From: Escherichia phage vB_EcoS-569R4
Sequence record: ON470598
Direction: 5' to 3' (one strand)
DNA length: 37,380 nucleotides
The notes under the pieces are model-generated. The model did not search any database. It was not told the origin of the DNA and saw nothing but the letters and a program-made list of their open reading frames with translations. The position numbers and the translations under genes were made by a program. Shown here in pieces: positions 8,080 to 37,380 of the stretch (positions are counted from its first letter, which is position 1; the number at the start of each line of letters is the position of its first letter).

Positions 8080-8465
8080 AGCTGATCCTGCCTTTTCCGC
8101 CCAGCGTGAACACGTACTGGCGACACCCCAACAAAGGGGCGTTTGCTGGTAAGAGCCTGATAAGCGCGGCGGGGCGAAAATTCCAGAGCGCGGCGTGCGC
8201 AGCAATAGTTGAGCAGTTACGTCGTCTGCCGAAACCAACGTCGGCACCTGCTTCAGTGGAGATCGTGTTGTTTCCTCCGGATAACCGGATCCGCGATCTG
8301 GACAACTATAACAAGGCGCTGTTTGACGCCCTGACCCACGCGGGTGTGTGGGAGGACGACAGTCAGGTGAAAAGAATGCTGGTGGAGTGGGGACCGGTTA
8401 TCCCGGAAGGGAAGGTCGAGATCACTATCAGTAAGTATGAGAAAACGGCGGGTGCAGCCGCCTGA
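8076..8465 (+). CDS. rusA: RusA-family Holliday junction resolvase
   Basis: 129 aa with a RusA-like N-terminus (MKLILPFPPSVNTYW) and an acidic cluster (DLDNYNKALFDAL); typical nin-region position. Confidence 0.85.
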   Translation: MKLILPFPPSVNTYWRHPNKGAFAGKSLISAAGRKFQSAACAAIVEQLRRLPKPTSAPASVEIVLFPPDNRIRDLDNYNKALFDALTHAGVWEDDSQVKRMLVEWGPVIPEGKVEITISKYEKTAGAAA

Positions 8466-8483
8466 TCAAGAGGAGAAACGAAG

Positions 8484-9282
8484 TATGAATAATCTGATGG
8501 TCATTGATGGTATTGAAGTTCGTCGTGATGCTTATGGTCGTTACAGCCTGAACGATCTGCACAGGGCTGCTGGTTCTCTGGATAAGCATAAGCCCGCATT
8601 CTGGCTCCGCAATGAGCAAACTGAACGCTTAATAAGCGAGTTGCAGATTTGCAACTCGGTCAATATAGCGCCAGTTAATGTCATTCGTGGTGGAAATAAC
8701 CAGGGAACGTATGTCTGCAAGGAACTGGTGTATGCCTATGCAATGTGGATCAGCCCGTCATTCCATCTGAAGGTGATCCGTACTTTCGACATGGTAACCA
8801 GCGCACCGGAAAAATTATCCGGACAGGCTGCTGACAAGATGCAGGCTGGTGTGATTCTGCTGGACTTTATGCGCCGGGAATTAAACCTGTCTAACTCTTC
8901 AGTGCTTGGTGCCTGTCAGAAACTCCAGGAGGCTGTTGGCTTACCGAATCTGGCACCGCGCTATGCCATTGATGCTCCTGCTGACGCGCCTGATGGCTCA
9001 AGCCGCCCCACGCTGTCACTGAGTGCACTGCTGAAGCAGTATGGTATCCGCCTGACAGCTAATCAGGCATATCACCAGATGGTGAAGCTGGGGATCGTCG
9101 AGCAGCGCGAACGATACAGCCGTACCGCGATTAACAACATCAAAAAATTCTGGTCGCTGACAGCGAAAGGCTGCATGTTCGGCAAGAATATCACCAGTCC
9201 CGCAAATCCGCGCGAGACGCAGCCGCATTTCTTCGAATCCCGATTCCCTGAGCTGTTAAAGCTGCTCGATACCGTTCATTGA
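8484..9282 (+). CDS. KilA-N domain protein (antirepressor-like)
   Basis: Track ORF trimmed to the ATG at 8484 with AGGAGA 7 nt upstream; N-terminal region (VIDGIEVRRDAYGRYSLNDLHRAAG...) resembles the KilA-N domain. Confidence 0.7.
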
Positions 9283-9283
9283 G

Positions 9284-10279
9284 GTGACCGTGAGAGCACT
9301 ACTGACCCCTGAAATTGCCCCGCGTATGGGGATCGTATTGTTCAGGCCAGGTTCAGAGTTGATGCCCCTGTTTATGCAGGGGCGTGTCCTGCTGGAGCCT
9401 GAGCCGGAACGTTATTCATCTTTCGCCAGTGGTGCAGTTCCGGCGGCATCACAACCGCTGGCGGATGATCCTGCCGTTCGGGCCGTGTTCCGCAATGAGG
9501 CAGTGATCCGTCGTGCTGGTGGCGTGGAATGTCTTGAAAGCTGGTTACTTCGTGAAAAAGGCTGCCAGTGGCCTCATTCCGACTGGCACAGCGAGAACAT
9601 GACCACAATGCGACACGCTCCGGGCGCAATCCGTCTGTGCTGGCACTGCGATAACCAGCTGCGCGATCAGTTCACGGAACGGCTGGAATCAATGGCAACG
9701 GATAACTGTGCCCGCTGGGTGTTGTCTGTTGTGCGTCGGGATCTCGGTTTTGATGACAGTCACGTTGTGACAATGCCGGAACTGTGCTGGTGGCTGATTC
9801 GTAATGATCTGGCGGATGCCTTACCGGAAAGTGCAGCCCGTAAGGCACTGAGATTACCGAAGCCTGTTGTGCCGTCTGTTACCCGGGAAAGTGACCTTGT
9901 GCCTTCGGTTCCTGCCACCAGCATCATCCAGGATAAGGCGAAAAAGGTGCTGGCGCTGAAAGTGGATCCGGAGTCGCCGGAGTCTTTTATGTTACGCCCA
10001 AAACGTCGCCGCTGGGTTAATGAAAAGTACACGCGCTGGGTTAAGACACAGCCGTGTGCATGTTGTGGAAAGCCCGCTGATGATCCCCACCACCTGATAG
10101 GTCACGGTCAGGGTGGAATGGGAACAAAAGCGCATGACCTTTTTGTGTTGCCTTTGTGCAGAAAGCATCACGACGAGCTGCATGCGGATACCGTGGCATT
10201 TGAAGAGAAGTATGGCTCCCAGCTGGAGCTGATATTTCGTTTTATCGATCGTGCGCTGGCAATTGGCGTGCTGGCCTGA
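9284..10279 (+). CDS. DUF968-like nin-region protein with Cys/His cluster (possible HNH-like nuclease)
   Basis: 331 aa, GTG start; C-terminal CACCGKPADDPHHLIGHG...CRKHHDELH cluster; family assignment from memory. Confidence 0.55.
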   Translation: MTVRALLTPEIAPRMGIVLFRPGSELMPLFMQGRVLLEPEPERYSSFASGAVPAASQPLADDPAVRAVFRNEAVIRRAGGVECLESWLLREKGCQWPHSDWHSENMTTMRHAPGAIRLCWHCDNQLRDQFTERLESMATDNCARWVLSVVRRDLGFDDSHVVTMPELCWWLIRNDLADALPESAARKALRLPKPVVPSVTRESDLVPSVPATSIIQDKAKKVLALKVDPESPESFMLRPKRRRWVNEKYTRWVKTQPCACCGKPADDPHHLIGHGQGGMGTKAHDLFVLPLCRKHHDELHADTVAFEEKYGSQLELIFRFIDRALAIGVLA

Positions 10280-30761: not shown

Positions 30762-33700
30762 ATGGGTAAAGGCAGCAGTAAGGGGCATACCCCGCGCGAA
30801 GCGAAGGACAACCTGAAGTCCACGCAGCTGCTGAGTGTGATCGATGCCATCAGCGAAGGGCCGGTTGAAGGTCCGGTGGATGGATTAAAAAGCGTGCTGC
30901 TGAACAGTACGCCGGTGCTGGACACTGAGGGGAATACCAACATCTCCGGTGTCACGGTGGTGTTCCGGGCAGGTGAGCAGGAGCAGACACCGCCGGAGGG
31001 GTTTGAATCCTCCGGCTCCGAGACGGTGCTGGGTACGGAAGTGAAATATGACACGCCGATCACCCGCACCATTACGTCTGCAAACATCGACCGTCTGCGC
31101 TTTACCTTCGGCGTGCAGGCACTGGTGGAAACCACCTCAAAGGGGGACCGGAATCCGTCGGAAGTCCGCCTGCTGGTTCAGATCCAGCGTAATGGTGGCT
31201 GGGTGACGGAAAAAGACATCACCATTAAGGGCAAAACCACCTCGCAGTATCTGGCCTCGGTGGTGGTGGGTAACCTGCCGCCGCGCCCGTTCAATATACG
31301 GATGCGCAGGATGACGCGGGACAGCACCACAGACCAGCTGCAGAACAAAACGCTCTGGTCGTCATACACCGAAATCATCGATGTGAAACAGTGCTACCCG
31401 AACACGGCACTGGTCGGCGTGCAGGTGGATTCGGAGCAGTTCGGCAGCCAGCAGGTGAGCCGTAATTATCATCTGCGCGGGCGCATTCTGCAGGTGCCGT
31501 CGAACTATAACCCGCAGACGCGGCAATACAGCGGTATCTGGGACGGAACGTTTAAGCCAGCATACAGCAACAACATGGCCTGGTGTCTGTGGGATATGCT
31601 GACCCATCCGCGCTACGGCATGGGGAAACGTCTTGGTGCGGCGGATGTGGACAAATGGGCGCTGTATGTCATCGGCCAGCATTGCGATCAGTCGGTGCCG
31701 GACGGTTTTGGCGGCACGGAGCCGCGCATCACCTGTAATGCCTGGCTGACCACACAGCGCAAGGCGTGGGATGTGCTCAGTGATTTCTGCTCTGCGATGC
31801 GCTGTATGCCGGTATGGAACGGGCAGACGCTGACGTTCGTGCAGGACCGACCGTCGGATAAGGTGTGGACCTATAACCGCAGTAATGTGGTGATGCCGGA
31901 TGATGGTGCGCCGTTCCGCTACAGCTTCAGCGCCCTGAAGGACCGCCATAATGCCGTTGAGGTGAACNNNNNNNNNNAATAACGGCTGGGAGACGGCGAC
32001 AGAGCTTGTGGAGGACACGCAGGCCATTGCCCGTTACGGTCGTAACGTCACGAAGATGGATGCTTTTGGCTGTACCAGCCGGGGGCAGGCACACCGCGCC
32101 GGGCTGTGGCTGATTAAAACAGAACTGCTGGAAACGCAGACCGTGGACTTCAGCGTGGGTGCCGAAGGGCTTCGCCATGTACCGGGCGATGTCATTGAAA
32201 TCTGCGATGATGACTATGCCGGTATCCGCACCGGCGGGCGCGTGCTGGCGGTAAACAGCCAGACCCGGACGCTGACGCTCGACCGTGAAATCACGCTGCC
32301 ATCTTCCGGCACCACGCTGATAAGCCTGGTTGACGGGCAGGGGAGTCCGGTCAGCGTGGAGGTTCAGTCCGTCACCGACGGCGTGAAGGTGAAAGTGAGC
32401 CGTGTTCCTGACGGCGTTGCTGAATACAGCGTATGGGGGCTGAAGCTGCCGACGTTGCGCCAGCGCCTGTTCCGCTGCGTGAGTATCCGTGAGAACGACG
32501 ACGGCACGTATGCCATCACCGCCGTGCAGCATGTACCGGAAAAAGAGGCCATCGTGGATAACGGGGCGCACTTTGACGGCGACCAGAGCTGCACGGTAAA
32601 TGGTGTCACGCCGCCAGCGGTGCAGCACCTGACCGCAGAAGTCACCGCAGACAGCGGGGAATACCAGGTGCTGGCCCGCTGGGACACGCCGAAGGTGGTG
32701 AAGGGCGTGAGCTTCCTGCTTCGCCTGACCGTGGCAGCGGATGACGGCCGTGAGCGGCTGGTCAGCACGGCCCGGACGACGGAAACCACATACCGCTTCA
32801 CACAACTGGCGCTGGGGAACTACAGGCTGACAGTCCGGGCAGTAAATGCGTGGGGGCAGCAGGGCGATCCGGCGTCGGTATCGTTCCGGATTGCCGCACC
32901 GGCAGCGCCGTCGCGGATTGAGCTGACGCCGGGCTATTTTCAGATAACCGCCACGCCGCATCTTGCGGTTTATGACCCGACGGTACAGTTTGAGTTCTGG
33001 TTCTCGGAAAAACGGATTGCGGATATCAGGCAGGTTGAAACCAGCGCGCGTTATCTTGGTACGGCACTGTACTGGATAGCCGCCAGTATCAATATCAAAC
33101 CGGGCCATGATTATTATTTTTACGTTCGCAGTGTGAACACCGTTGGCAAATCGGCATTCGTGGAGGCTGTCGGTCAGCCGAGTGATGATGCATCAGGCTA
33201 TCTGGATTTTTTCAAAGGCGAGATAGGGAAAACCCATCTGGCTCAGGAGCTGTGGACGCAGATTGATAACGGTCAGCTTGCGCCTGACCTGACTGAAATC
33301 AGGACGTCCATAACGGATGTCAGCAATGAAATAACACAGACCGTCAATAAGAAACTGGAAGACCAGAGTGCAGCGATCCAGCAGATACAGAAGGTTCAGG
33401 TTGATACAAATAATAACCTGAACAGCATGTGGGCAGTGAAGCTGCAGCAGATGCAGGACGGACGCCTTTATATTGCGGGTATCGGTGCCGGTATTGAGAA
33501 CACCCCTGACGGCATGCAGAGTCAGGTGCTGCTGGCAGCAGACAGGATTGCGATGATTAATCCTGCGAATGGCAACACAAAGCCGATGTTTGTTGGTCAG
33601 GGCGATCAGATATTCATGAATGAAGTGTTCCTGAAACGCCTGACGGCCCCCACCATTACCAGCGGCGGTAATCCTCCGGCATTTTCCCTGACATCAGACG

Positions 33701-34257
33701 GGAGACTGACGGCGAAAAATGCGGATATCAGTGGCAGTGTGAATGCGAACTCAGGAACGCTCAACAATGTCACGATTAACCAGAACTGTACGATTAAGGG
33801 CATGCTGGAGGCGACCCAGGTCAGAGGAGATTTCGTTAAAGCTGTATCAAAAGCCTTCCCGAAAAAAGTCGGTACGTGGGGTAACACGGAAACACCAAAC
33901 GGTACGGTTACAGTCACCATCAGCGATGATCATAACTTTGACCGCCAGATTATTATTCCGCCCATTATTTTTAACGGTATAGCGTATGACGATCCGGGGA
34001 GCGGAAATAACCCAGGAGGCACGCGATACACGGGTTATGGTTTTGAAGTTCGCAAAAACGGCGTATTAATCGCATCCAGAGAAACTAAAGGGGCCATTCC
34101 CGGTAGTTACAGTGCGGTTATTGATATGCCGAGTGGCAGGGGAAGCGTCACTCTGGAGTTTAAGATTTTCCAGAAAGGCAATCAGGGGGCAGGCAATATC
34201 ACCGACTGTACGGTGATTGTGACCAAAAAAGCCGCTTCCGGCATCAGTATTCGTTGA
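30762..34257 (+). CDS. J: tail tip/host-specificity protein J (one gene, artificially split by the N-run at 31968-31977)
   Basis: Track ORFs 30762..31982 and 32008..34257 together give ~1155 aa; N-terminus [24 protein letters not shown] matches lambda J as I recall it. Confidence 0.85.
31968..31977. other. run of 10 N (assembly gap or mask) inside J
   Basis: Literal n characters in the sequence; flanking reading frames differ, so the true missing length is not 10. Confidence 1.
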
Positions 34258-34278
34258 AATATTTATAACCCCAATAAA

Positions 34279-34304
34279 GGGCGTCAGGAATGACGCCTTT
34301 TTTA
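34279..34304 (+). terminator. intrinsic terminator after J (GGGCGTCA-ggaa-TGACGCC followed by T-run)
   Basis: 7-8-bp stem, 4-nt loop, TTTTTTA. Confidence 0.6.
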
Positions 34305-34327
34305 TTGCAGAAAAGCGAGAGGTAATT

Positions 34328-34927
34328 ATGCGTAAAGTTTGTGCAGCCATTTTGTCCGCAGCCATTTGTCTGGCCGTATCCGGTGCGCCTGCATGGGCGT
34401 CTGAACATCAGTCCACGCTGAGCGCGGGGTATCTTCATGCCTCGATGAACGTCCCCGGCAGTGATGATCTGAACGGGATTAACGTGAAATACCGTTATGA
34501 GTTTACGGACACACTGGGGCTGGTGACGTCATTCAGCTATGCAGGAGACAAGAATCGCCAGCTGACCCGTTACAGCGATACCCGCTGGCATGAAGATTCC
34601 GTTCGTAACCGCTGGTTCAGCGTAATGGCGGGGCCGTCTGTGCGCGTGAATGAATGGTTCAGCGCGTATGCGATGGCGGGTGTGGCTTACAGCCGTGTGT
34701 CGACTTTCTCCGGGGATTATCTGCAGGTGACCGACAATACGGGGAAAACGCACGATGTGCTGACCGGAAGTGATGACGGTCGCCACAGCAACACGTCTCT
34801 GGCGTGGGGGGCTGGCGTGCAGTTTAACCCGACCGAATCCGTGGCCGTTGATGTCGCTTATGAAGGCTCCGGCAGCGGTGACTGGCGCACTGACGGGTTC
34901 ATCGTGGGTGTTGGTTATAAATTCTGA
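34328..34927 (+). CDS. lom: Lom outer-membrane protein (Ail/Lom family)
   Basis: 199 aa with signal peptide (AAILSAAICLAVSGAPAWA) and a beta-barrel-like sequence ending in an aromatic residue (GYKF); matches lambda Lom as I recall it. Confidence 0.85.
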   Translation: MRKVCAAILSAAICLAVSGAPAWASEHQSTLSAGYLHASMNVPGSDDLNGINVKYRYEFTDTLGLVTSFSYAGDKNRQLTRYSDTRWHEDSVRNRWFSVMAGPSVRVNEWFSAYAMAGVAYSRVSTFSGDYLQVTDNTGKTHDVLTGSDDGRHSNTSLAWGAGVQFNPTESVAVDVAYEGSGSGDWRTDGFIVGVGYKF

Positions 34928-34953
34928 TTAGCCAGGTAACACAGTGTTATGAC

Positions 34954-34980
34954 AGCCCGCCGGTTCAGGCGGGCTTTTTT
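34954..34980 (+). terminator. intrinsic terminator after lom (AGCCCGCC-ggttca-GGCGGGCT followed by T6)
   Basis: Perfect 8-bp GC-rich stem and T-run. Confidence 0.65.
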
Positions 34981-34991
34981 GTGGGGTGAAT

Positions 34992-36035
34992 ATGGCAGTA
35001 AAAATTTCAGGTGTACTGAAAGACGGCACAGGAAAACCGGTACAGAACTGCACAATCCAGCTGAAAGCAAAACGTAACAGTACCACGGTGGTGGTGAACA
35101 CGCTGGCATCTGAAAATCCGGATGAAGCCGGGCGTTACAGTATGGACGTTGAGTACGGTCAGTACAGCGTTATTCTGTTGGTGGAAGGATTCCCGCCGTC
35201 ACATGCCGGGACCATCACAGTGTATGAAGATTCCCGACCCGGTACGCTGAATGATTTTCTCGGTGCCATGACGGAGGATGATGCCCGTCCGGAGGCACTG
35301 CGCCGTTTTGAGCTGATGGTGGAAGAGGTGGCGCGTAACGCGTCCGTGGTGGCACAGAACACGGCAGCCGCGAAGAAGTCAGCCAGTGATGCCAGCACAT
35401 CAGCCCGTGAGGCGGCAACCCATGCGACTGATGCTGCAGGCTCAGCACGCGCAGCCAGCACGTCAGCCGGACAGGCCGCGTCGTCGGCTCAGTCAGCGAC
35501 TTCCAGCGCAGGAACGGCATCAACAAAGGCCACTGAAGCATCAAAAAGTGCTGCCGCTGCAGAGTCCTCAAAAAGCGCGGCAGCTACCAGTGCCAGTGCC
35601 GCGAAAACGTCAGAAACGAATGCTGCAGCGTCACAACAATCAGCAGCCACTTCTGCATCCACCGCGACCACGAAAGCGTCAGAAGCTGCCACTTCAGCCC
35701 GGGATGCGGCGGCTTCAAAAGAGGCGGCAAAATCATCAGAAACGAACGCATCCTCGAGCGCCAGTAGCGCAGCTTCCTCGGCAACAGCGGCAGGAAATTC
35801 CGCGAAGGCGGCAAAAACGTCAGAGACGAACGCCAGGTCTTCTGAAACGGCAGCGGGACAGAGCGCCTCGGCTGCGGCAGGCTCAAAAACAGCGGCTGCG
35901 TCGTCTGCCAGTGCAGCGTCAACAAGTGCCGGGCAGGCCTCAGCCAGTGCCACCGCCGCCGGAAAATCGGCAGAAAGCGCCGCATCATCCGCTTCAACAG
36001 CCACAACGAAGGCTGGCAAAGCCACTGAGCAAGCC
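34992..36035 (+). CDS. stf: side tail fibre protein Stf, N-terminal part (truncated by the N-run at 36036)
   Basis: MAVKISGVLKDGTGKPVQNCTIQLKA... N-terminus followed by Ala/Ser/Thr-rich repeats (SAxxASTSA, AAKTSETNA) typical of lambdoid Stf. Confidence 0.75.
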
Positions 36036-36045
36036 NNNNNNNNNN
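36036..36045. other. run of 10 N (scaffold join) between a mid-gene stf sequence and a mid-gene lom sequence
   Basis: Literal n characters; the sequence on the left is the stf interior and on the right the lom 3' half, which cannot be a native junction. Confidence 1.
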
Positions 36046-36267
36046 TTCTCCGGGGATTATCTCCGCGTAACTGACAACAAGGGGAAAACGCACGATGTGC
36101 TGACCGGAAGTGATGACGGTCGCCACAGCAACACGTCTCTGGCGTGGGGGGCTGGCGTGCAGTTTAACCCGACCGAATCCGTGACCATTGACCTTGCTTA
36201 TGAAGGTTCCGGTAGTGGCGACTGGCGAACGGATGCATTTATTGTTGGTATCGGATACCGTTTCTGA
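36046..36267 (+). CDS. lom: Lom C-terminal fragment, second diverged copy (5' part missing at the gap)
   Basis: FSGDYLRVTDNKGKTHDVLTGSDDGRHSNTSLAWGAGVQFNPTES...GYRF parallels 34706-34927 with several substitutions. Confidence 0.6.
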   Translation, partial: FSGDYLRVTDNKGKTHDVLTGSDDGRHSNTSLAWGAGVQFNPTESVTIDLAYEGSGSGDWRTDAFIVGIGYRF

Positions 36268-36418
36268 CAACAGACGCCGATTTATCTTCTGTAAATATTG
36301 TTATGATACGCAGGTTCATCCACCTTATGGGGTGAACTGCGTTTGAGGAAACGTAAAGTTACACTGTCCTGAAGCCCGTGGCGTCACTGCTGCGGGCTTT
36401 TTTTATTGGTGGAAAAGT

Positions 36419-37380
36419 ATGACAGTAAAAATTTCTGGCGTGCTTAAAGATGGCACAGGAAAACCAGTACAGAACTGCACCATTGTGCTGAAGGCCAGAC
36501 GAACCAGCAGCACGGTGGTGGTGAACACGGTGGCCTCTGAAAATCCGGATGAAGCCGGACGTTACAGCATGGATGTTGAGCATGGTCAGTACAGCGTCAC
36601 CCTGCTGGTTGAAGGTTTTCCGCCTTCACATGCCGGGACCATTACCGTCTATGAAGGTTCCAGACCAGGTACGCTGAATGATTTTCTCGGTGCCATGACG
36701 GAGGATGATGTACGACCGGAGGCACTGCGCCGCTTTGAGCAGATGGTAGAAGAGGTGTCACGTAACGCCTCCGCGGTTGCACAGAATACGGCAGCCGCGA
36801 AAAAATCAGCCAGCGATGCCAGTGCATCAGCCAGCGAGGCGGCAACTCATGCAACCGATGCTGCAGCCTCATCACGTGCCGCCAGCACGTCAGCCGGACA
36901 GGCCGCGTCGTCGGCTCAGTCAGCGTCTTCCAGCGCAGGAACGGCATCGACAAAGGCCCGTGAAGCAGCAAAAAGTGCTGCTGCTGCAGAGTCATCAAAA
37001 AGCGCGGCAGCTACCAGCGCCAGTGCCGCGAAAACGTCAGAAACGAATGCCGCAGCATCACAAAAATCGGCAGCCACTTCTGCATCCACAGCGACCACGA
37101 AGGCGTCAGAAGCTGCCACCTCGGCACGGGGTGCGGCGGCCTCAAAAGAGGCAGCGAAATCTTCAGAAACGAATGCATCATCAAGTGCCAGTAGTGCAGC
37201 TTCCTCGGCAACGGCGGCAGGAAATTCCGCGAAGGCGGCAAAAACGTCCGAGACGAACGCTAAGTCTTCTGAAACAGCAGCGGGACAGAGCGCCTCAGCT
37301 GCGGCAGGTTCAAAAACAGCGGCTGCATTATCTGCCAGTGCCGCGTCAACAAGTGCCGGGCAGGCCTCAGCCAGTGCCAC
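36419..37380 (+). CDS. stf: side tail fibre Stf, second diverged copy, N-terminal part (runs off the window end)
   Basis: ATG at 36419 preceded by a hairpin with T-run; translation MTVKISGVLKDGTGKPVQNCTIVLKA... parallels the first stf copy with scattered substitutions; not in the ORF track because no stop lies in the window. Confidence 0.7.
   Translation, partial: MTVKISGVLKDGTGKPVQNCTIVLKARRTSSTVVVNTVASENPDEAGRYSMDVEHGQYSVTLLVEGFPPSHAGTITVYEGSRPGTLNDFLGAMTEDDVRPEALRRFEQMVEEVSRNASAVAQNTAAAKKSASDASASASEAATHATDAAASSRAASTSAGQAASSAQSASSSAGTASTKAREAAKSAAAAESSKSAAATSASAAKTSETNAAASQKSAATSASTATTKASEAATSARGAAASKEAAKSSETNASSSASSAASSATAAGNSAKAAKTSETNAKSSETAAGQSASAAAGSKTAAALSASAASTSAGQASASA

Follow-up and report, generated by a model that had tools for sequence, protein, structure and literature searches.

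An apparent second lom-stf copy in an Escherichia phage record: most probably a piece of another resident prophage joined through an N-run

The genomes of E. coli ST131 harbour multiple lambdoid prophages whose stf genes are mosaic, and in one of these prophages, Phi4 in the EC958 nomenclature, lom has been inactivated by ISEc12; this is real biology and already known. Phi4 adjoins trp (Table 3 of Forde et al. 2014, PMC4134206), being integrated at ompW next to trpA, and there presents, in order, the ISEc12-split lom, stf, tfa, an invertible tail-fibre segment and a truncated invertase. Collapsed repeats, gaps at insertion elements and, in strain NA114, artefactually concatenated contigs are described in the same paper (PMC4134206), which also cautions that duplications in phage regions may be artefactual.

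The locus considered here occupies the end of the window, i.e., the whole 37,380-nt stretch of record ON470598 that was analysed. It resembles the lom-stf-tfa region of lambda in the order gpJ, lom, stf, in possessing a full-length Ail_Lom protein, and in an Stf N-terminal domain that is followed by an Ala/Ser-rich stretch. Unlike in lambda, its alleles are those of resident prophages of E. coli ST131 and neither of its stf copies is complete, each being cut off where a contig ends. Relative to Phi4, the window has only a 1,335-bp island, with the insertion element, the 5' part of lom and the 3' part of stf missing. The evidence assembled below indicates that the second lom-stf copy is, very probably, a real 1.3-kb piece of Phi4 joined by ten Ns, and that it thus represents a draft-assembly artefact and no duplication.

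Two N-runs and two diverged lom-stf copies

Exactly two N-runs, each of 10 nt, are present in the window (Table 1). The flanks of the first are colinear with the ssrA-prophage locus of strain Ecol_AZ146 (L001), mapping to its positions 6966 and 6979, and gpJ appears frameshifted at this point (ORFs 30762-31982 and 32008-34257). On account of the mismatch between the 10 Ns and the 12 nt for which they stand, the N-runs are recognised as fixed-size gap placeholders; the second of them bridges two different loci. Masking as the source of the runs is ruled out, given that the first puts 10 Ns in place of 12 nt.

A BLASTN comparison of the piece to the right of the second run with the rest of the window aligned 36046-36257 with 34706-34917 (87.3% identity, E 1e-71) and 36392-37380 with 34969-35953 (88.7%, E 0), and a repeat search of the window recovered the same two direct-repeat families. 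Between these blocks lies an unaligned stretch of the intergenic spacer that measures 134 nt (36258-36391) in the right copy versus 51 nt (34918-34968) in the left copy. At the protein level, the Lom C-termini share 65 of 73 residues and the Stf N-termini 296 of 320. Hence, the statement in the initial annotation that 36046-37380 repeats the lom C-terminus and the stf N-terminus with substitutions is confirmed, as are the peptides it compared, namely YLQVTDNTGKTHD in the left copy and YLRVTDNKGKTHD in the right copy. Tandem Repeats Finder detected no internal tandem repeats in stf that could have caused the contig to break.

The left lom (34328-34924) matches Pfam family PF06316 (Ail_Lom) over positions 1-199 of 199 (E 3e-121; 402.8 bits against a cut-off of 23), which makes it a full-length member above the gathering score, and its equivalent in Ecol_AZ146 is annotated as an Ail/Lom family protein. 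The right lom (36046-36264) covers only positions 127-199 of the same profile (E 4e-38). It had been described as the 3' half of the gene; it is indeed a 3' fragment, albeit one comprising the final 37%. In complete genomes this second lom is likewise annotated as a pseudogene devoid of the N-terminus, situated downstream of ISEc12. Both stf copies display the PF08400 (phage_tail_N) domain over positions 1-134 of 134 at the start of the ORF (E 2e-72 on the left, 7e-71 on the right), downstream of gpJ and lom, and their C-terminal receptor-binding parts fall outside the window. The complete stf of the ssrA prophage in Ecol_AZ146 is 3,072 nt long (L001 CDS 9993-13064).

Table 1. Features at and around the two N-runs (coordinates of the window)
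Feature	Coordinates	Strand	Remarks
First 10-N run	31968..31977		Within gpJ; colinear gap placeholder for 12 nt, TGGATTGACCCG in Ecol_AZ146
Intact lom, ssrA-adjacent prophage	34328..34927	+	Ail/Lom outer-membrane beta-barrel, 199 aa
stf 5' 1,044 nt, ssrA-adjacent prophage	34992..36035	+	ATG at 34992, 348 codons, no stop; contig end cuts gene
71-nt exact repeat common to both stf genes	35916..35986	+	L001 10917-10987 = L002 9298-9368
49-nt left contig tail	35987..36035	+	Five Phi4-type SNPs: 35987, 35990, 36018, 36029, 36032
Second 10-N run	36036..36045		Artificial join of non-adjacent sequences
lom 3' fragment, Phi4 (ompW/trpA-adjacent)	36046..36267	+	Last 73 codons and stop
Phi4 lom-stf intergenic spacer	36268..36418	+	Ends in a putative GC-rich hairpin, then a T-run (36372-36407)
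Phi4 stf 5' 962 nt, 320 codons	36419..37380	+	Window end cuts gene; L002 CDS 8374-11280

Source prophages and the ISEc12 boundary

The part of the window comprising 1-31967 and 31978-35986 shows 0 mismatches to the lambdoid prophage beside ssrA in Ecol_AZ146, and its first 25,000 nt (1-25000) are 100% identical to this and about 50 other ST131-type chromosomes. The right piece (36046-37380; 1,335 bp), in turn, is 100% identical to EC958 1482544-1483878, which lies in prophage Phi4, and to the Phi4 locus of strain 4/1-1 (L002) from 8001 onward, with window position 37380 corresponding to L002 9335. Further, 786 records contain it at an identity of 99% or more. Both pieces are present in Ecol_AZ146 as two separate prophages, the right piece being found at 836-2170, 1.63 Mb from the ssrA prophage and on the opposite strand. 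The two loci correspond to 1628432-1632167 and to 5432621-4115 of this chromosome, the second range crossing the origin.

In Ecol_AZ146, 4/1-1 and EC958 alike, Phi4 has the order gpJ, lom 5' part, ISEc12 (istA/istB), lom 3' part, stf. The element, as seen in L002, is 2,581 bp long, has the ends TGCGTATT.../...AATACGCA and is accompanied by a 5-bp ACTTT target duplication. The combination of istA and istB, terminal inverted repeats and the ACTTT duplication within lom identifies it as an IS21-family insertion, and istA/istB are annotated as ISEc12 in L002, in L003/L004 and in L018. The right piece starts 3 nt beyond the right end of ISEc12, with the element itself outside the window. The right lom is therefore truncated because the native Phi4 lom is split by ISEc12 and the contig starts at the edge of the element. 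As each chromosome of the strains listed for ISEc12 carries the element at 3-8 sites, a short-read contig would be expected to break at this site. A literature search on ISEc12 in ST131 prophages found nothing relevant.

The shared stf repeat and the end of the left contig

The two stf genes have an exact 71-nt repeat in common, within which the final 38 nt of the right piece (37343-37380) fall. The left contig passes through this repeat, and its last 49 nt are identical to L002 9369-9417, i.e., to the stf of Phi4. At the five SNPs the tail has A, C, A, G and A, where the ssrA-prophage type has G, T, G, A and G; upstream of the repeat, bases specific to the ssrA-prophage type are present at 35902-35915. 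This Phi4-type tail was missed in the initial annotation. Repeat and tail together form the final 120 nt of the left contig, which are identical to L002 9298-9417. The right piece stops at L002 9335, and hence it is the tail of the left contig that truly continues it. The earlier supposition that both contigs end in near-repeats applies to the ends at 36035 and 37380, both of which are located at the stf repeat; it does not apply to the end that was actually joined, at 36046, which is the edge of ISEc12.

Over a stretch of 336 nt that includes the SNP switch, no complete E. coli genome reaches 99% identity. The exact patterns of the N-junction and of the 144-nt switch sequence gave no match in the viral_contigs or genome_contigs collections, and the protein of the post-gap gpJ ORF likewise had no exact match. 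Two short-read metagenome contigs contain the 144-nt switch sequence without any difference, and one of them (L016) ends 63 nt past the equivalent of window position 36035, 112 nt after the repeat.

The lengths to which the two contigs enter the shared repeat are unequal (120 nt on the left versus 38 nt on the right), a pattern not accounted for by a simple de Bruijn model in which just two copies exist. A third stf copy is indicated in such genomes by the 3 places observed in Ecol_AZ146; Phi1 and Phi2 of EC958, the only further prophages for which coordinates have been published, are P2/Mu-like, without a lambda-type stf N-terminus. In a Velvet-like graph, k = 39 would be compatible with the overhang of 38 nt, though no claim is made to this effect.

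Origin of the junction and relation to known systems

To examine the junction, the 500 nt from each side of the second N-run were fused and compared with 5,426 complete E. coli genomes. In none of them did this stf-to-lom' query match contiguously over about 1,000 nt; the matches obtained consist of two pieces spanning 1,409-1,417 nt at no more than 97.7% identity, corresponding to the usual lom-to-stf order. The initial annotation was right that an stf interior and a lom 3' fragment abut the run at 36036-36045 in a junction that is not native.

The window is accordingly most probably a provirus-style excerpt from the short-read draft scaffold of an ST131-type E. coli, made up of three contigs separated by fixed 10-N placeholders. 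Contigs 1 and 2 (1-31967 and 31978-36035) belong to the ssrA-adjacent lambdoid prophage, and contig 3 (36046-37380) is a 1,335-bp island of the second resident lambdoid prophage, the EC958 Phi4 at ompW/trpA. Bounded by repeats on both sides, namely multicopy ISEc12 in lom at the left and paralogous stf sequence at the right, this island for that reason assembles alone as a separate contig. The left contig crosses the 71-nt repeat and continues for 49 nt along the Phi4 branch, and we infer that a scaffolder, or a contig-ordering step, then tied the orphan Phi4 island to its end, the exact behaviour of the assembler being likewise a reconstruction. The stf-to-lom' adjacency therefore has no counterpart in the genome, and no tandem duplication is present.

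Of the origins proposed earlier, the linking of separate contigs, with the second copy drawn from another lambdoid prophage, is supported by the situation in the same genome type, Ecol_AZ146, in which the two loci are 1.63 Mb apart in opposite orientation. The other proposal, a true tandem duplication of the lom-stf module in a single prophage, possibly part-collapsed by the assembler, would be in keeping with the presence of two diverged lom/stf copies that share one orientation in the scaffold and are separated by 1.3-1.4 kb. However, the second copy is base-for-base identical to a separate prophage present in hundreds of genomes, it begins at an IS boundary with no duplication breakpoint, its junction with stf is found in none of the 5,426 complete genomes, and 11 of 11 long assemblies with the exact Lom carry a single lom-stf at the ssrA prophage. 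Moreover, the copies differ by 11-13%, which speaks against a recent event, and a duplication is hence extremely improbable. It is also very unlikely that the right piece came from another strain or organism via a mixed sample or binning. Fixed N-linkers do also serve when contigs of one bin are concatenated, but both pieces exactly match prophages coexisting in one ST131-type chromosome (Ecol_AZ146), and in Phi4 the left contig tail and the right piece are contiguous, which suggests a single assembly graph.

With the join itself regarded as artefactual, two origins come into question for the Phi4-type tail of the left contig, namely a chimera formed at the contig end and a real recombinant of a rare kind. 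The latter, for which the stf of the ssrA prophage and that of Phi4 would have recombined within the 71-nt repeat, is a possibility, albeit a rather doubtful one. It could have taken the form of gene conversion or a cassette swap, or that of a chromosomal inversion, the two genes being inverted and about 1.6 Mb apart. From 35916 on, a true two-copy repeat would then break both contigs, accounting for both of them stopping, and the mis-join would be a by-product. In line with such an event, stf genes of the ssrA prophage whose 3' part is of the Phi4 type occur naturally (L009, L014), with the crossover about 480 nt further downstream than the switch in the window, and the exact switch recurs in two independent metagenome contigs. 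However, L016 also ends near the switch and may reflect the same artefact, and the lack of a complete E. coli genome at 99% or above across the switch region further weighs against a real recombinant. Additionally, all 11 of the 11 assemblies with an identical Lom are of the ssrA-prophage type (L1-type) after the repeat, the rest of the source has 0 mismatches to Ecol_AZ146 over 36 kb, and the switch falls within the last 49 nt of a contig, a typical site of graph chimeras. Were the tail nevertheless real, it would signify gene conversion retargeting the tail fibre of the ssrA prophage, or a prophage-mediated chromosomal inversion.

The preferred reading, an artefactual join of two resident prophages, matters chiefly as a question of data hygiene. 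Accepted as it stands, the scaffold would suggest a phage in which the tail-fibre locus is duplicated, lom is truncated and stf is a hybrid. It would also enlarge the provirus by 1.3 kb of foreign sequence, and gene callers running across the N-runs would report gpJ as frameshifted, together with chimeric ORFs such as 35386-36267. We recommend that 36036-37380 be trimmed or flagged and that 35987-36035 be regarded as uncertain.

In its overall form, the locus is comparable, in no way unusually, to short-read mis-assemblies of poly-lysogenic E. coli, with breaks at a multicopy insertion element and at paralogous tail-fibre sequence and a paralogue placed beside its homologue. It is also reminiscent of the mosaic lambdoid stf genes, among which the ssrA-prophage stf is found with either its own 3' part (L006/L007) or a Phi4-type one (L009/L014). 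Unlike these known mosaics, the switch in the window lies inside the 71-nt repeat, is shared with no complete genome and may be an assembly chimera.

Two lom-stf copies and the prophages they belong to

A second, diverged lom-stf copy past the second N-run, as proposed in the initial annotation, is real and its likeness to the first lies far beyond chance, with alignments, Pfam and a repeat finder in agreement. Alignment gives 87.3% identity between 36046-36257 and 34706-34917 (E = 1e-71) and 88.7% between 36392-37380 and 34969-35953 (E = 0), the spacer between lom and stf being longer in the right copy, and an independent repeat finder recovers the same two direct-repeat families. The Lom C-termini are identical at 65 of 73 residues and the Stf N-termini at 296 of 320; the peptides quoted earlier for the two copies are correct. 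Further, the left Lom spans all of the Pfam Ail_Lom domain (positions 1-199 of 199, E = 3e-121) and the right fragment only positions 127-199 (E = 4e-38), while both Stf starts match phage_tail_N in full (1-134 of 134).

Coordinates of the lom and stf features flanking the second N-run
Feature	Position in window	Extent	Side of second N-run
lom, intact	34328-34927	199 aa	left
stf, 5' part	ATG 34992	first 348 codons	left
lom, 3' fragment	36046-36267	last 73 residues of Lom	right
stf, second start	ATG 36419	320 codons, to window end	right

The left part of the window represents the lambdoid prophage adjoining ssrA: window 1-25000 shows 100% identity to a prophage carried by about 50 ST131-type E. 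coli chromosomes, among them those of Ecol_AZ146, THO-003 and several O25b:H4-ST131 isolates. In Ecol_AZ146 this prophage lies at 1630460-1666496, with its integrase end towards glaH/gabDTP and a tail end comprising gpJ, lom, stf (3,072 nt), tfa, a GIY-YIG gene and an EcoRII-like restriction-modification pair, followed by ssrA/smpB; there are no mismatches to it over window 1-31967 or 31978-35986.

The right piece (36046-37380) has its 100% match at another locus, a second lambdoid prophage (Phi4 of EC958) inserted in ompW beside trpA, and 786 complete-genome records contain it at 99% identity or more. Exact matches lie in strain 4/1-1 (L002, its Phi4 locus, 8001-9335) and EC958 (1482544-1483878), and in Ecol_AZ146 the piece occurs at 836-2170, on the other strand and 1.63 Mb away from the left prophage of the same genome. 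In all three of these genomes lom is split by ISEc12 (IS21 family; istA/istB), which in L002 measures 2,581 bp, has the ends TGCGTATT.../...AATACGCA and is flanked by a 5-bp ACTTT duplication; the right piece starts 3 nt past its end. In the strains listed, each chromosome has ISEc12 at 3-8 places, which forces a break in a short-read contig that reaches it, and for this reason lom is represented by no more than its 3' 37%. This cause has no connection with the stf sequence across the N-run.

The Phi4 lom'-stf segment is further interrupted by IS200C or ISApl1 in NZ_CP124367.1 and NZ_AP026794.1, and IS elements seem to have hit this locus repeatedly. Past the Phi4 stf, at L002 11854-13581 and EC958 1484784-1487890, comes the invertible tail-fibre segment known from Forde et al. 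2014, who place it at 1484784-1487890 with a truncated invertase (PMC4134206, Table 3), and the annotation agrees on both points. In sequence this segment is near-identical to its counterpart in the P2-like prophage Phi1, which adds to the ambiguity of assembling these genomes.

The main inference of the initial annotation, that the scaffold was joined to a paralogous segment of another prophage in the same genome, is right. Its alternative, a real or collapsed tandem duplication, was addressed with a query fusing 500 nt from either side of the N-run, for which none of the 5,426 complete E. coli genomes searched has a contiguous match of ~1,000 nt. The best places match in two pieces that together span 1,409-1,417 nt and reach 97.7% identity at most; this is the usual arrangement within one prophage, lom followed by stf. 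This absence, together with the exact Phi4 identity, the IS-defined start of the right piece and the single lom-stf of the ssrA prophage in every long assembly, leads to rejection of a duplication.

The shared stf repeat and the switch at the contig end

The two stf genes have an exact 71-nt stretch in common (window 35916-35986; 10917-10987 in L001, the Ecol_AZ146 ssrA-prophage tail region; L002 9298-9368). The right piece stops 38 nt into it (37380 = L002 9335), and the left contig passes through it, its last 49 nt (35987-36035) departing from its own prophage by five substitutions, each to the Phi4 base. Over its last 120 nt the left contig is identical to L002 9298-9417, so that its tail continues the right piece as Phi4 itself does.

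This arrangement is characteristic of an assembly graph with two paths through one short common node, from which path A-R-C would be emitted in place of the true paths A-R-D and B-R-C, with the orphan B afterwards joined to the end of A-R-C. The linking step might have been, for example, a paired-end scaffolder that inserts at least 10 N, or the contigs could have been ordered on a reference and separated by a spacer of fixed length. The left contig extends 120 nt into the repeat and the right piece 38 nt, an inequality that a two-copy model does not explain; these genomes also have a third stf homologue, with 3 places in AZ146.

The five-SNP switch is probably a contig-end chimera. No complete E. 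coli genome matches the 336 nt spanning it at 99% (best 98.8%), AZ146 and THO-003 stand at 98.5%, matching the five SNPs, and bases as in L001 follow the repeat in all 11 assemblies with an identical Lom in the ssrA prophage. A real recombinant is rather unlikely, its support being two metagenome contigs from short reads that contain the 144-nt switch sequence exactly, and the existence of true stf cassette swaps. One of these contigs (L016) is a 101-kb SPAdes node differing from the window at 16 positions, and the other (L017) is 2 kb long, has a depth of 1.9x and shows a third mosaic form of stf. As for the swaps, two ssrA prophages (L009 10665-14657; L014 12141-14678) have, compared with L006/L007, Phi4-type sequence in place of their own, comprising the 3' part of stf together with tfa and an inverted tfa. 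The two prophage types have thus exchanged a tail-fibre cassette naturally; the crossover at L001 ~11464 is about 480 nt further downstream than the window switch. The N-join is artificial whether the switch is chimera or recombinant.

Independent short-read contigs also end within the conserved Ala/Ser-rich part of stf: L016 (ERZ1031992 NODE_21, 101 kb; 3247-3453) stops 63 nt past the equivalent of window 36035, and L015 at L001 ~11409. Assemblies break recurrently in this region.

N-runs and window limits

The window holds exactly two N-runs of 10 nt each, at 31968-31977 and 36036-36045. The former, inside gpJ, has flanks colinear with Ecol_AZ146 and puts 10 N in place of 12 nt (TGGATTGACCCG); hence, masking is rejected as the origin and the N-runs are fixed-size gap placeholders. 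The host-specificity gene gpJ looks frameshifted, being split into ORFs 30762-31982 (406 aa) and 32008-34257 (749 aa), and is a single intact gene of 3,498 nt in Ecol_AZ146; the frameshift is only apparent, a gap artefact. Mechanical ORFs also cross the second N-run (35386-36267, plus strand; 35584-36270, minus strand), one example being a 293-aa ORF that joins an alternative stf frame to the lom 3' fragment, and gene callers without N masking would report chimeric proteins across 36036-36045.

Window position 1 (L005 12001) falls exactly on a CDS boundary of the AZ146 annotation, just downstream of the integrase and a small adjacent gene, both absent from the window. Such a start suggests that a provirus caller cut at a gene boundary, and the window looks like such a caller's excerpt of a draft scaffold. 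The right end of the prophage is also absent (stf 3' part, tfa, GIY-YIG gene, EcoRII-like methyltransferase/endonuclease pair and attR at ssrA).

Relation to known prophages and artefacts

It follows that 36036-37380 is foreign to this prophage, and the phase of 35987-36035 is uncertain. Collapsed repeats, insertion-element gaps and artefactual contig concatenation have been reported for ST131 assemblies, along with a warning of artefactual duplications in phage regions (PMC4134206). Everything here is known biology combined with routine artefact: the lambda-type gpJ-lom-stf module, the several lambdoid prophages with mosaic tail-fibre genes in each ST131 genome, the IS-inactivated lom of Phi4, and the breaking of short-read contigs at IS elements and paralogous prophage genes are all already known.
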